A program made the translations under genes and the position numbers. From Klebsiella phage LPKP23, in sequence record PV112478.1: a stretch of DNA of 64,000 nt; one strand, 5' to 3'. Shown here in pieces: positions 11,985 to 59,904 of this stretch (positions are counted from its first letter, which is position 1; each line of letters opens with the position of its first letter). The notes beneath the pieces are model-generated. The model saw only the letters and a list, made by a program, of their open reading frames with translations. It was not told where the DNA came from and did not search any database.

Positions 11985-12034
11985 AATTTAATCCTCCAGA
12001 TTACGTTATTCCTTACAGTGATATATGCATAAAA

Positions 12035-12062
12035 CCGAGTGGAGACCTAGGTCTCCACTCGG
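12035..12062 (-). terminator. Rho-independent terminator (minus strand)
   Basis: Hairpin ccgagtggagacc/ggtctccactcgg, followed by a T-run in the minus sense. Confidence 0.5.
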
Positions 12063-12066
12063 TAAT

Positions 12067-12339
12067 TCAGTCATCGAAACGAATTGTTGAACCTTTGACA
12101 ATCCCTTTACAAACTGTCCCTGTTACAAATTTACCGGCGGGTGATAACGCTTCGAAGTGAGTGCGATAAATTTCATTTTTGGCGCAGCCTAAAGTAAAGT
12201 CATCCGAAACTTTTACTTCAGTATAGCCATTATTTTCAAGTATTCGTTTAGCCCCGTCGGTATCACGTAAACCCATAAAAGACAATGCGCCCGCACCTAG
12301 TAATAGCACACAAACAATGGTATATAAAATATTTTTCAT
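12067..12339 (-). CDS. Small protein with an N-terminal signal peptide or membrane anchor
   Basis: N-terminus MKNILYTIVCVLLLGAGALSF. TAATG overlap with the upstream Toprim reading frame. Confidence 0.4.
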   Translation of the reverse strand: MKNILYTIVCVLLLGAGALSFMGLRDTDGAKRILENNGYTEVKVSDDFTLGCAKNEIYRTHFEALSPAGKFVTGTVCKGIVKGSTIRFDD

Positions 12340-12849
12340 TATTTTCTCTCAAGAAAAGGTTTAACTACAGAAAGTCTTTCTTCTTCTGTTAGTTCGTCTA
12401 AATCACGACTAGTCGACCCTCTGCGGAAGTTACGACTAAACTTCTCACCTGCTTTATCATCGTCCCCCAAACAAACAAATTCGTAAGGGAGTAATAATAG
12501 TTGTTGTTTCAGTTGAGGGGAAAGGTCAGAACCTAATGCGCTCCAGCTATTTAAGTCCAGGACATGAAGACTGGCTGATTTAAAGACAGACTCCGTTAAG
12601 AATACGGGACCGGGTTTCAGTTCTAATTTCTAAACCAAAAACACCAACATTACCAAGAAGTCTCGTGAAATAACGGGCTTCTTTAGGGTTCTTTGTTTTC
12701 TTAGGGGCATCGGGTGTATAAACCTGATAACCGCGCAGTTTATAGTCGAAACCAAACAAAGGTACGGTAAGACTGGTTTCTGTTAACCAATTAGTCGGGT
12801 AGCGGTTTACGTCGTAATGACGTTCGAGCAAGTGTTCGGTTAAGTTCAT
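12339..12849 (-). pseudogene. Primase-like Toprim-domain gene interrupted by a frameshift near 12580
   Basis: Two segments in different frames. The first, 12580-12849, begins with an ATG (MNLTEH...GVFGLEIRTETRS). The second, 12339-12579, has no ATG (...ASLHVLDLNSWSALGSDLSPQLKQQLLLLPYEFVCLGDDDKAGEKF..., a Toprim DxD motif) and ends in a TAATG overlap with the next gene. Confidence 0.45.
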
Positions 12850-12956
12850 GACTTGGTCTCTCTTTTATCTTGAGCTGAGTATTTTCATACGGGTTTGCAG
12901 TAACTGCGGAAAACAGATTTAATCTTTGCATCCCGATAAAAATAGTAAGTGTGTTC

Positions 12957-13157
12957 TTAGCGAACATAATTCCTCCTTTGGTTTAATTCTGTTCTGGTCG
13001 GTTTTTCAGCATCGATAGGTTCTAGCCAAAAATGTTTACATTCCCTACATTCCCAAGTTATTTCATTGTCGTCCTCATCGTATACTTGAGAACAGTGCAT
13101 AGCTTGGCACATAGGGCAATCCATCCCGGTCCACTGGAACGTCATGGTTTTACACAC
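12957..13157 (-). CDS. Zinc-ribbon protein, possibly a primase zinc-binding domain encoded separately
   Basis: 66 aa with CPMC...C...CRECKHFW cysteine clusters. It lies directly upstream of the Toprim fragments. Confidence 0.4.
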   Translation of the reverse strand: MCKTMTFQWTGMDCPMCQAMHCSQVYDEDDNEITWECRECKHFWLEPIDAEKPTRTELNQRRNYVR

Positions 13158-13618
13158 ATGTATTTGGTTTGTTCCAGAAAACCCTGCGACTCATAGAATT
13201 TCTGGGCATTTACGTTAGAGACGTGGACAGAGAGACTAACTTGGTCAACTGAGAGGTGCTTAGCAAACATTCTAACTTGTTTTACCAGTGCCTTCCCGTA
13301 GCCCATTTTTCGATAATGTCGTTTGATGTACAGATAATTAATCGACATCCATGTAACACTTCCGTTTACGACAGGTGGTATATACTCAACAAACCCTACG
13401 ACATTCTCTTTATCTATTACCAGAAGAATGTTAGTTTGATCAGTCCAACGATCAATAAGTTTTTCTGTTTTTAACTCGTTAGTGAGGATGTCGAGATTAC
13501 TTCTCGATTTCCATAAAGTCGCTTCATTTTTATCCATGACATGAAACATGTCTAAAAGTTCTTTTTCATACTTGATAGCTTCCGGATCTTCAGGGCCCAG
13601 TAATAAAACAAATTCCAT
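13142..13618 (-). CDS. GNAT-family N-acetyltransferase
   Basis: Motif A RHYRKMGYGKALV (R/Q-x-x-G-x-G/A) at the conserved position. 158 aa. Confidence 0.55.
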   Translation of the reverse strand: MEFVLLLGPEDPEAIKYEKELLDMFHVMDKNEATLWKSRSNLDILTNELKTEKLIDRWTDQTNILLVIDKENVVGFVEYIPPVVNGSVTWMSINYLYIKRHYRKMGYGKALVKQVRMFAKHLSVDQVSLSVHVSNVNAQKFYESQGFLEQTKYMCVKP

Positions 13619-57937: not shown

Positions 57938-58274
57938 GAAACGTTTTGATTTCTTGTAGCGACAATTCCAGAAGTGCGTCAGTATCAGATAAATTTAGTT
58001 CAGGCGTAGAAAAAACAGAAAGAAGTCGTTGCTCCATCGTAGAGTAACCATAGATCAGTTTCTCCAGACTAAAGAGCAAAAGTAAACCATACGCCTCGCC
58101 AAACGTCACCGGCTCTAAAGTGTCAGAGAAAAAGCAACGGTAGATCTTCTCGAGGCGAGGCCGTAATAACGCGATGTCAATAATCTCTATTTTGTTCTTC
58201 AGATTGTTCTTCACGTTTTTCTCGTTGTATCCTTTCCCAATCCCGAATTCGCCAATCGCCAAGGTTCTCGACAA
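57840..58274 (-). CDS. Hypothetical small protein
   Basis: 144-aa ORF. The true start is probably internal. Confidence 0.35.
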   Translation of the reverse strand: MSRTLAIGEFGIGKGYNEKNVKNNLKNKIEIIDIALLRPRLEKIYRCFFSDTLEPVTFGEAYGLLLLFSLEKLIYGYSTMEQRLLSVFSTPELNLSDTDALLELSLQEIKTFLEKTSEERIIDYYGWEISRDQRSIRLFTNLHL

Positions 58275-58716
58275 TTAATGCGTTGTTTCTGACTTCGACC
58301 ACCACAATTTCATCCCAGAACCTATTTTTTCGTATCCCCATGTCACGAAAATATTCTACCGCGAACACGATAAAGATATCGATGACTTCGCGGTAGAGTT
58401 CTTGGGACGGCTCATCTACGATCTCTTCGTTGTACGGATTAAAACCAATAGGCTCTAACGTGTAACCTTTAAACCAACCACGAATAGCAGCATCGTCGTC
58501 CCAACATTCCCAAGGATATTTAGCGTCTTTATTGATGGCATTCCAAAAGAGACGGAGGGCAGTTTCCTTAAGATCTTCTACACGAAGGTTCTTGTCAGCG
58601 TACCGGTCGATAACACTGTGTTGGCGACGGACTGAATAGAGAATGGACGATAGTCGTCTGGCGAGATAATCAATATCAATAACATAACGCATAATAGAGA
58701 CCTTATCGATAAACAA
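58177..58716 (-). CDS. Hypothetical small protein
   Basis: 179-aa ORF. The true start is probably internal. Confidence 0.4.
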   Translation of the reverse strand: MFIDKVSIMRYVIDIDYLARRLSSILYSVRRQHSVIDRYADKNLRVEDLKETALRLFWNAINKDAKYPWECWDDDAAIRGWFKGYTLEPIGFNPYNEEIVDEPSQELYREVIDIFIVFAVEYFRDMGIRKNRFWDEIVVVEVRNNALIVENLGDWRIRDWERIQREKREEQSEEQNRDY

Positions 58717-59107
58717 GATAGGTACGTGAGTTCATCCGTTCCGTGTAGCATTCACCGTAAATACCGTATCGATCCCATTGAGAACGAAGATCGCTAAGGA
58801 TTTTTTCTAATACGCCTGTATTTTTCATTTTTTCAATTTCTTCCTGAAGAGACATGTAAAACGATAACTGGTCCCGATAATAAGGATCATCGGGAATCGT
58901 TTCAAAATCGCTTTCCAGCGGGTCAATGTTATTCGAGTAATAAATCTCAATGAACAGTTTGTTATAATCTTTGGTTTTTCCTTTTTCCCAGTGGTACGCG
59001 GTAGAAAGGAAAGCGTCTATAATTTGATCCCGCCAGAGACCCTTATAGCCATCGGTGAAGACTTTAAGCGCCGGGGGGATTTCGAAGAGATATTTTTGCA
59101 CTGCCAT
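58703..59107 (-). CDS. Hypothetical small protein
   Basis: 134-aa ORF. Confidence 0.4.
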   Translation of the reverse strand: MAVQKYLFEIPPALKVFTDGYKGLWRDQIIDAFLSTAYHWEKGKTKDYNKLFIEIYYSNNIDPLESDFETIPDDPYYRDQLSFYMSLQEEIEKMKNTGVLEKILSDLRSQWDRYGIYGECYTERMNSRTYLVYR

Positions 59108-59541
59108 AAATCAGGATTCCTCTGACGAAACTCTTCATCATCTACCCAAACCATTAATGCGTTCCGTTGTATATCGAGCGATTCGATATGAAGCAGATTA
59201 ACCGGAAGTTTCAATGGTACGCCACCGTACTCCTTTTCCAATACCCTGGCTACTTGCCATATCTTTTCTGTCTCCCAACGGTCATTATCAGTAATTAAAT
59301 AATCAGGCGGAATCGTGTTATACGTCCGGTCTAACCAGTGGGCTAAAATCCTTAACCGATAGAACCGATCCATTGTCGGTGTCATATCGAGAAAATGCTT
59401 AATATCGATGACAATCAACATGGTCTTCAGTTCCCAGTGTAATTTCAAAATGATTGTGTTGGAAAGAAAAGTCGAGGACACGATAATGACGCGGGACACC
59501 TTCCAATTGAAAGAGCGCGGTGAGTTCCTTTTCTTTTTCAT
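59017..59541 (-). CDS. Hypothetical small protein
   Basis: 174-aa ORF. The true start is probably internal. Confidence 0.35.
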   Translation of the reverse strand: MKKKRNSPRSFNWKVSRVIIVSSTFLSNTIILKLHWELKTMLIVIDIKHFLDMTPTMDRFYRLRILAHWLDRTYNTIPPDYLITDNDRWETEKIWQVARVLEKEYGGVPLKLPVNLLHIESLDIQRNALMVWVDDEEFRQRNPDLWQCKNISSKSPRRLKSSPMAIRVSGGIKL

Positions 59542-59848
59542 TAACCCGATTGAAGATCGTTTCGATCATTGCGTTAAAATCACGTTTATCTCTACCCGGT
59601 AACATTTTACTGGGTTCTACCTTATCGGTTAACAAATAGATCCCTTGCGCCCAATGCTTTCGTTCCCGGAAATGAAACCACGTCATCCAGGTCGCGTAGA
59701 AAATTTCTTTCACGGTGAAAATACCGTGATAGGGTGAATTAATCCAGTAAAAGATCTTTGGGATCTCGCCTTTAACTATCATGACGTCACCAGACTTCCT
59801 GTAAGTCATTCTAAGCCTCTTTTTACTGTCAGTAGTACTATCTATCAA
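59399..59848 (-). CDS. Hypothetical small protein (first gene of the array)
   Basis: 149-aa ORF, preceded 40-56 nt upstream by the ATATATTACCCTATTGA motif. Confidence 0.4.
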   Translation of the reverse strand: MIDSTTDSKKRLRMTYRKSGDVMIVKGEIPKIFYWINSPYHGIFTVKEIFYATWMTWFHFRERKHWAQGIYLLTDKVEPSKMLPGRDKRDFNAMIETIFNRVNEKEKELTALFQLEGVPRHYRVLDFSFQHNHFEITLGTEDHVDCHRY

Positions 59849-59887
59849 ATAAATTGATAAACCCGTACAAAGCGATTACAGCTATGT

Positions 59888-59904
59888 TCAATAGGGTAAT
59901 ATAT
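59888..59904 (-). promoter_or_regulatory. Promoter-like motif ATATATTACCCTATTGA (minus sense)
   Basis: Third near-identical copy of the motif. Heads the 11-gene small-ORF array. Confidence 0.4.

Follow-up and report, generated by a model that had tools for sequence, protein, structure and literature searches.

A stretch of 64,000 nucleotides from Klebsiella phage LPKP23 (record PV112478.1), referred to below as the window, contains a recurrent element with the core TATATYAC, located upstream of minus-strand genes, and the present analysis concerns this element and the genes that it precedes. The window is about 99% identical to several Klebsiella pneumoniae jumbo phages of approximately 300 kb. 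The complete annotated genome of Klebsiella phage KpLz-2_45 (genus Siatvirus) shows 98.7% identity with it, while FBKp24 (genus Maaswegvirus) shows about 77% in the 57% of an 8-kb query that aligned with it. In the relatives of the window, annotation includes a PhuZ tubulin gene and several genes described as 'RNA polymerase beta subunit'.

Genes of the window

Homologs of the phiKZ RNA polymerase (RNAP) subunits and of the protein that forms the phage nucleus shell were found at the following positions:

36075..38345, minus strand: non-virion RNAP beta-like gene, homolog of phiKZ gp71-73 (full-length match to 7ogp_C, PHIKZ071, E = 4e-77)
34108..36075, minus strand: non-virion RNAP beta'-like C-terminal gene, homolog of phiKZ gp74 (full-length match to 7ogp_D, PHIKZ074, E = 4.6e-67)
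48380..49834, minus strand: non-virion RNAP beta'-like N-terminal gene, homolog of phiKZ gp55 (full-length match to 7ogp_A, PHIKZ055, E = 1.4e-64)
42024..43565, minus strand: gp68 homolog, the fifth (non-beta) subunit of the non-virion RNAP (match to 7ogp_B, PHIKZ068, E = 3.5e-31)
49918..51819, minus strand: distant homolog of chimallin, the phage nucleus shell protein (weak matches to PhuN/chimallin 8fne, E = 7e-7, and 7sqq, E = 1e-4)
1221..2594, minus strand: virion RNAP subunit gene, homolog of phiKZ gp80 (BLASTP against phiKZ gp80: E = 7e-57, 30% identity)

The chimallin homolog adjoins the gp55 homolog, as in phiKZ, and a note in the FBKp24 record concurs. A gp123 homolog is present in KpLz-2_45 (E = 2e-59), as the second gene of a two-gene unit behind a copy of the element at 138962. 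Both split multisubunit RNAP sets are encoded, the non-virion one by homologs of gp55, gp68, gp71-73, gp74 and gp123, and the virion one with a gp80 homolog, and the phage group carries chimallin and PhuZ as nucleus-forming genes. The RNAP, chimallin and gp80 homologs in the window therefore place this jumbo phage, of genus Siatvirus, among the phiKZ-like, nucleus-forming phages that encode two RNAPs.

Definition of the element

In an earlier note on this DNA the element was described as a 17-nucleotide promoter-like motif. The 17-mer ATATATYACYCTATTGA does occur, as stated there, in exactly three copies, all on the minus strand (38418-38434, 43590-43606 and 59888-59904), and it had zero matches in 100 dinucleotide-preserving shuffles; when three mismatches were permitted, a single extra site appeared, at 12010-12026. 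Ten copies of the core TATATYAC were counted in the window against 2.8 expected, seven of them lying between minus-strand ORFs on the sense strand, and TTNANRNMTATATYAC is present in 5 copies against 0.03 expected. The core of the proposed 17-nt motif was thereby upheld, but its 3' half, CTATTGA, was not, as it is found at only three of the seven window sites described below, and the element spans about 35 bp instead of 17. The full signal reads T C n A – N6 – T T n A n R n M – TATATYAC – N5 – T G.

This signal emerged from the complete KpLz-2_45 genome, which was scanned together with its 360 annotated features and in which the TATATYAC copies were aligned to reveal their flanks. The genome contains 35 such copies, and the 22 that fall in its 7% intergenic part are all sense-oriented. 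A 38-column matrix was built from KpLz-2_45 sites, with columns numbered from the first T of the core (= 0), and a scan with it returned 29 sites scoring 21-43.5 bits. Every one is a sense-oriented minus-strand site, located 31-142 nt upstream of a same-strand gene. The maximum reached in ten Markov shuffles of the same genome was 15.8 bits. The intergenic 7% holds 27 of the 29 sites, the other two being at CDS edges.

Several columns are invariant in the 29 sites, i.e. A at -15, a purine at -3, A or C at -1, TATAT at 0 to +4, C at +7 and T at +13. T was found at -8 and at -7 in 28 sites each, T at -18 and A at -5 in 26 each, A at +6 in 24 and C at -17 in 22, whereas column +5 is C in 20 sites and T in 7. 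Column +14 holds G in 27 sites and A in the other two, and is followed by A at +15 (21/29) and at +16 (23/29). Five of the 29 sites possess non-canonical cores (TATATTGC, TATATAGC, TATATCTC) and were picked up by their flanks alone, therefore the information in the flanks is independent of the seed.

The matrix scores in the window are bimodal, with seven sites of at least 21 bits and a next best match of 8.1 bits, and the plus strand of the window contains no match of at least 5 bits. The sites are listed below and are named in the text by the higher coordinate of the core. The spans given cover positions -18 to +16, and the predicted start is the purine at +14, located 6 nt after the core.

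38417..38451, minus strand: predicted early promoter copy; core TATATCAC at 38426-38433; 42.3 bits; predicted start G 38419, 74 nt upstream of the non-virion RNAP beta-like gene
51882..51916, minus strand: predicted early promoter copy; core TATATCAC at 51891-51898, in the form TATATYAC-N5-TG; 42.2 bits; predicted start G 51884, 65 nt upstream of the chimallin homolog
43589..43623, minus strand: predicted early promoter copy; core TATATTAC at 43598-43605; 37.8 bits; predicted start G 43591, 26 nt upstream of the gp68 homolog
31726..31760, minus strand: weaker predicted early promoter copy; core TATATTAC at 31735-31742; 28.2 bits; predicted start A 31728, 48 nt upstream of a 160-aa ORF (GNAT acetyltransferase in the FBKp24 annotation)
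12009..12043, minus strand: predicted early promoter copy, matching TTNANRNMTATATYAC; core TATATCAC at 12018-12025; 27.5 bits; predicted start G 12011, 27 nt upstream of ORF 11106..11984
59887..59921, minus strand: predicted early promoter copy with weak upstream elements; core TATATTAC at 59896-59903; 24.2 bits; predicted start G 59889, 80 nt upstream of the first ORF of a small-ORF array
24668..24702, minus strand: weak predicted early promoter copy; core TATATCAC at 24677-24684; 21.0 bits; predicted start A 24670, about 25 nt before the start codon at 24645

The predicted leaders in the window measure 25-80 nt. The earlier note had correctly given both the sense orientation and the spacing to start codons (about 25-90 nt), and two of the degenerate copies that it listed, at 31727-31743 and 12015-12026, turned out to be genuine members of the set, with the 28.2 and 27.5 bits given above. 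The copies at 24684 and 51898 had been overlooked. A third degenerate copy, at 16721-16740 (TATATTAT), does not belong to the set, as it scores below -5 bits at every register. This minus-strand candidate was rejected as a promoter copy, since it has neither the TG at +13/+14 nor the -20/-30 elements, and the best value within 16557-16760 is -14.

Genes and terminators around the sites

Site 38433 stands at the head of a unit with the non-virion RNAP beta and beta' genes (36075..38345 as its first and 34108..36075 as its second gene) and a helicase gene, site 43605 heads the gp68, gp69 and gp70 homologs, and site 51898 heads chimallin and then the gp55 homolog. When the window and KpLz-2_45 are taken together, each of the five non-virion RNAP subunit homologs belongs to a unit that follows a site, the gp55 homolog only via chimallin and a terminator-like hairpin (49896-49867, minus strand). 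The gp80 homolog (1221..2594), used as a negative control, has no matrix match of at least 8 bits nearby, and no site precedes any of the 36 plus-strand genes of KpLz-2_45, many of which encode tail or virion proteins.

Three of the window sites stand next to strong terminator hairpins and therefore appear to open new transcription units:

43625..43650, minus strand: intrinsic-terminator-like hairpin of 11 pairs, the T-rich tail of which reaches the -30/-20 part of promoter 43605
59941..59965, minus strand: intrinsic-terminator-like hairpin of 11 pairs with a T-tract, 20 nt upstream of the span of promoter 59903
24700..24719, minus strand: intrinsic-terminator-like hairpin of 8 G-C pairs, abutting promoter 24684

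Conservation in related phages

Conservation of the element was observed in FBKp24, phiKZ and four other genera, and is as much a direct observation of this work as the motif, its statistics, its placement and orientation, and the identity of the downstream genes. In the syntenic 50 kb of FBKp24 six orthologous positions were examined, and all six carry a site, of 31-43 bits, including three that are weak in the window. The ortholog of the chimallin site 51898 scores 43.1 bits, and those of sites 31742, 59903 and 24684 score 36.8, 32.5 and 30.9 bits, respectively; sites 38433 and 43605 are also kept.

The comparison with phiKZ was based on the first 100 kb of its genome, read directly, and on the consensus quoted in PMC7058600. 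TATATYAC sites are located there upstream of gp5, gp6, gp10, gp10.1, gp31, gp36, the chimallin gene gp54, gp58.1 and gp68, and share T-18, A-15, TT-8/-7, A-5 and N5-TG with the Klebsiella sites. TATATTAC lies directly upstream of PHIKZ068, and a TATATCAT variant upstream of gp70.1/gp71. The Klebsiella matrix gives just 9-20 bits on phiKZ, because phiKZ mostly has T where the Klebsiella core has C, and A at -17; the sites that it matches are exactly the TATATYAC sites heading genes.

Other genera show the same arrangement. TATATTAC-N5-TG is found upstream of the chimallin genes of phiKZ, 201phi2-1 and Goslar, and in Goslar, 201phi2-1, PhiEaH1 and 2050HW the motif TATAT(AT)TAC-N5-TG precedes the orthologs of chimallin, gp68 and gp71. 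The cores of PCH45 are variants, with TATATATTAT-N5-TG upstream of gp68, and an ACATTAY variant occurs in RAY and at the chimallin site of PhiEaH1. As a separate observation, a full TATATTAC-N5-TG with TTTGAGATT flanks is located directly upstream of gp128/gp129 in 201phi2-1 (positions 19733-19740 of the stretch read).

The non-virion RNAP beta gene is closely preceded by a small gene on the opposite strand (38463-38813, plus strand), and a gene of similar size occupies the equivalent place, also on the opposite strand, in FBKp24, 2050HW, PhiEaH1, PCH45, RAY, Goslar and 201phi2-1. Promoter 38433 therefore appears to lie in a conserved divergent intergenic region.

Comparison with known promoter systems

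The published core of the phiKZ early promoter is TATATTAC, and the early consensus of 201phi2-1 is TTAWTAVAA_HYWTTTRARR_BTATATTACDWHDGTG (PMC7058600, Table 2); the early promoters of both phages are conserved at -10, -20 and -30 (PMC11512511). In AR9 the early consensus is AAATATATATTAT-(6N)-G+1, and the phiKZ and phiR1-37 starts are located 6 nt past the element (PMC5312081). An AT-rich motif at about -10 precedes the early operons of every RNAP-encoding jumbo phage, and wherever tested it was an early promoter (PMC7598289). The early promoters of phiKZ are read by the injected virion RNAP (PMC7598289, PMC13282480). Early transcription is independent of the host RNAP, phiKZ-like infections being insensitive to rifampicin (PMC13282480, PMC7598289), and in phiKZ and AR9 it starts within minutes and is insensitive to rifampicin as well as to inhibition of protein synthesis (PMC7598289, PMC5312081).

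The Klebsiella sites resemble those of phiKZ in the 8-nt core (C or T at position 6), in the flanking positions named above, in their number (29 in KpLz-2_45 against 28-32 copies in phiKZ; PMC7058600, PMC8244752) and in their placement before chimallin, gp68 and the gp71-74 block. On the other hand, the host is Klebsiella, the polymerase subunits are only about 28-30% identical, the Klebsiella sites favour TATATCAC (20/29) over TATATTAC, and C-17 is commoner in them, whereas most phiKZ sites have A-17. The early starts of phiKZ were mapped, and those of the Klebsiella sites are predicted from sequence.

With 201phi2-1 the sites share the three-block -30/-20/-10 layout and the TG after N5 (PMC7058600, PMC11512511), as well as the position of the motif before the chimallin, gp124 and gp128/129 orthologs. 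However, 201phi2-1 has T just before the core, where the Klebsiella sites have C or A, and its -30 block is TA.AA instead of TCnA. The AR9 promoter similarly consists of an alternating AT-rich core, six bases and a G start (PMC5312081), but its core ends in T, not C, and extends further upstream, and AR9 itself has a uracil-containing genome and no nucleus. The predicted early promoters of OBP, N1M2 and EL (…KATATTATYWAAGTG; …CCTACATTATY), of which 31 copies are predicted in N1M2, have the same layout and a TG start motif (PMC7058600), with the difference that their cores are ATATTAT or ACATTAT; RAY and the PhiEaH1 chimallin site resemble this variant.

Two further phage promoter types do not fit. 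The late type of phiKZ (TATG, G = +1) differs from the motif, which contains no TATG and is strongly conserved upstream. An N4-type hairpin promoter (5-7 bp stem, 3-nt loop) was considered and rejected, as no hairpin is common to the seven window sites, for which folding gave 0 to -2.8 kcal/mol, with z-scores of -2.1 to +1.1.

Proposed assignment of the sites to the virion RNA polymerase

Based on these observations, we suggest that the sites are very probably early promoters read by the virion RNAP of a phiKZ-like Klebsiella jumbo phage. The proposal of the earlier note that the motif is recognized by a phage-encoded RNAP gains support from the presence of both RNAP sets and from the match with phiKZ in core, spacing and flanks before orthologous genes, and the reading can be refined in that the virion enzyme is the most likely of the two.

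In the mechanism that we propose, the multisubunit RNAP packaged in the virion would enter the cell along with the DNA and recognise a signal of about 35 bp. We place the start at the G in column +14 because of the register with AR9 and 201phi2-1, and counted from this predicted start the core would occupy -14..-7, TTnA -22..-19 and TCnA -32..-29. Initiation would take place at the conserved purine (G in 27/29 sites) that follows the invariant T, 6 nt past the core, and neither the host RNAP nor fresh protein synthesis would be needed for transcription from these sites. The products would include the chimallin shell protein, subunits of the non-virion polymerase and many small proteins of unassigned function. 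The sites, often located just past a terminator, would each open a new early transcription unit.

Several points weigh against this assignment. Homology with phiKZ, AR9 and 201phi2-1 is the basis on which the enzyme, the start site and the early timing were assigned. Within the window, sites 24684, 31742 and 12025 deviate from TG at +13/+14, and sites 59903 and 24684 have no -30 element, so that weak or silent copies may be among them; a predicted early promoter of AR9 was silenced by a single mismatch (PMC5312081). Long-read mapping of 201phi2-1 yielded only 6 early-type starts, and its gp129/130 transcript was attributed to a middle promoter (PMC11512511), therefore a match to the motif is no guarantee of exclusive early use. 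The identity between the window and FBKp24 is 0.69 in the 38 motif columns versus 0.61 and 0.69 in the flanks, and is thus no higher in the motif, because terminators, ribosome-binding sites and the ends of coding regions lie in the flanks. Phylogenetic footprinting of the plain kind against FBKp24 was accordingly abandoned, as only the informative columns of the motif stand out. The location of all sites on one strand means little in itself, since the minus strand carries 90% of the KpLz-2_45 genes.

Alternative explanations

The sites might instead, or in addition, be promoters of the non-virion RNAP, of the middle class or used continuously. The chimallin gene of phiKZ has both early and middle starts (PMC8244752), and the gp129/130 transcript of 201phi2-1 was assigned to a middle promoter (PMC11512511) although TATATTAC-N5-TG lies just upstream. 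However, all five subunit genes of this enzyme stand behind the motif, and the enzyme would be unable to make its own first transcripts. Moreover, phiKZ has other sequences as its middle motif (TACT at about -22 with an A-rich tract) and as its late motif (TATG) (PMC8244752, PMC7598289), whereas the core of the Klebsiella sites is identical to that of the phiKZ early promoter (PMC7058600). We consider this explanation unlikely.

Another possibility, kept as an option in the earlier note, is that a DNA-binding regulator of the phage binds the motif as an operator or activator, or that the motif serves as a strand-specific signal of another kind, and that it is not itself what the polymerase recognises. 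Co-injected proteins may participate in promoter recognition by the virion RNAP (PMC13282480). Against a regulator speak the fixed spacing of the motif to the invariant T-purine step and to the gene start, the position of the sites immediately past terminators with one copy heading each unit, and the lack of dyad symmetry or a hairpin at the sites. In addition, the equivalents in phiKZ, AR9 and 201phi2-1 lie at a fixed distance from mapped 5' ends (PMC5312081, PMC8244752, PMC11512511), and we regard a pure regulator site as highly improbable.

Host sigma-70 promoters with a -10-like TATATY, read by the Klebsiella RNAP at the onset of infection, seem hardly credible: TATATT is one position off TATAAT, the AT-rich element lies about 10 bp upstream of the start, at the presumed melting point, and the conserved purine falls about where a sigma-70 start would, but the hexamer ends in C in 20/29 sites where sigma-70 needs T, the upstream TCnA block is only 14 nt from the core with no TTGACA-like -35 hexamer at 16-18 nt, the invariant positions downstream of the hexamer (+7 and +13/+14) have no sigma-70 counterpart, and phiKZ-like infections are insensitive to rifampicin (PMC13282480, PMC7598289). 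A sense-strand sigma-70 scan found none of the seven window sites, in agreement with the earlier description of the motif as unlike sigma-70, and matches in the window were below the shuffle expectation (28 vs 33.9, 17 vs 25.0 and 23 vs 28.7). One site in FBKp24 does have its downstream half overlapped by a sigma-70-type 'promoter' feature.

The 'promoter' features in the FBKp24 GenBank record are sigma-70-type predictions, and the early promoters are unannotated there. One of these features (NC_061421.1 85940-85970) has its -35 (TTGATA) at the 3' end of an early promoter, with TATAAT 17 nt on. The structural paper on phiKp24 does not mention promoters.

Significance of the predicted early promoter map

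The assignment of the sites to the virion RNAP leaves the known picture of transcription in these phages unchanged and will not surprise specialists. Early promoters of this type have been described before in phiKZ and its relatives, and what is found here would essentially be the phiKZ early promoter in a Klebsiella phage. Its use lies mainly in annotation, as a map of early units, drawn from nucleotide sequence, in a group of Klebsiella jumbo phages studied for therapy, with exact start sites predicted for the window. Most early genes in this group are annotated as hypothetical, and FBKp24, the one examined related record with promoter features, lists sigma-70-type predictions instead of these sites. 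From Pseudomonas to Klebsiella phages, the promoters keep their positions before the genes for chimallin and the non-virion RNAP.

The architecture from -32 to +1 is nearly the same in the Klebsiella phage and phiKZ despite the subunit identity of about 28-30%. Although we would sooner doubt it than accept it, we tentatively raise the idea that the virion RNAP recognises its promoters by a code of three contact blocks that is frozen across the whole family. If true, it would imply a built-in, sigma-like recognition module in the virion RNAP, the early promoters would be exchangeable between chimallivirus genera and would constitute a portable, host-independent early-expression signal, and a single matrix could annotate early genes across the family.

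Possible late-type motif, tRNA array and other observations

A second motif, TTTATG, is enriched between the genes of KpLz-2_45, where 24 of its 118 copies fall in the intergenic 7%. Of these 24 copies, 22 are sense-oriented and located 22-111 nt before a gene (one at 506 nt), often directly following a hairpin, for instance in front of the genes for the tail sheath, a tail protein and tRNA-Met. The sites in the window are:

17448-17453, minus strand: TTTATG site
14861-14877, minus strand: TTTATG site
30772-30777, minus strand: TTTATG site
21547-21552, minus strand: TTTATG site
38361-38366, plus strand: TTTATG site

Because of their likeness to the phiKZ late core TATG (G = +1), these may be promoters of the non-virion RNAP. 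No early-type site was found upstream of any of the three tRNA blocks, and late-type promoters of this kind may account for transcription of the tRNA array.

One of the tRNAs (20413-20496, minus strand) has the anticodon TTA, i.e. is of the ochre-suppressor type, and FBKp24 also has such a tRNA, annotated as tRNA-Sup-TTA. The array differs between near-identical phages: the window at 16392-17251 contains tRNA-Gln, tRNA-Tyr, a 113-aa ORF and tRNA-Arg, whereas KpLz-2_45 (NC_061418.1 184187-184979) has an HNH endonuclease gene there, with its own copy of the early promoter (core 184836-184843, 32 bits).

Two families of terminator-like hairpins recur in the window, GAGAGAGG...CCTCTCTC and AAAGAAAGG(G)...CC(C)TTTCTTT. 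They are located at 20161-20188, 14876-14901, 39155-39178 and 31816-31846, and also at 47729-47756, 49867-49896, 21576-21603 and 34073-34104. Several of them could act bidirectionally, and the families are reminiscent of terminator motifs described as conserved in phiKZ and 201phi2-1.

The array headed by site 59903 consists of about 11 short ORFs (119-179 aa), packed or overlapping, at 55469-59809 on the minus strand, between the promoter and the DNA polymerase gene. At site 12025 the window (11106-12066) contains, in comparison with KpLz-2_45 (NC_061418.1 180991-181060), an extra ORF of 292 aa (11106..11984) between the gp197 homolog and its promoter, and the promoter flanks also differ from those in KpLz-2_45, which therefore points to an indel polymorphism at an early unit.

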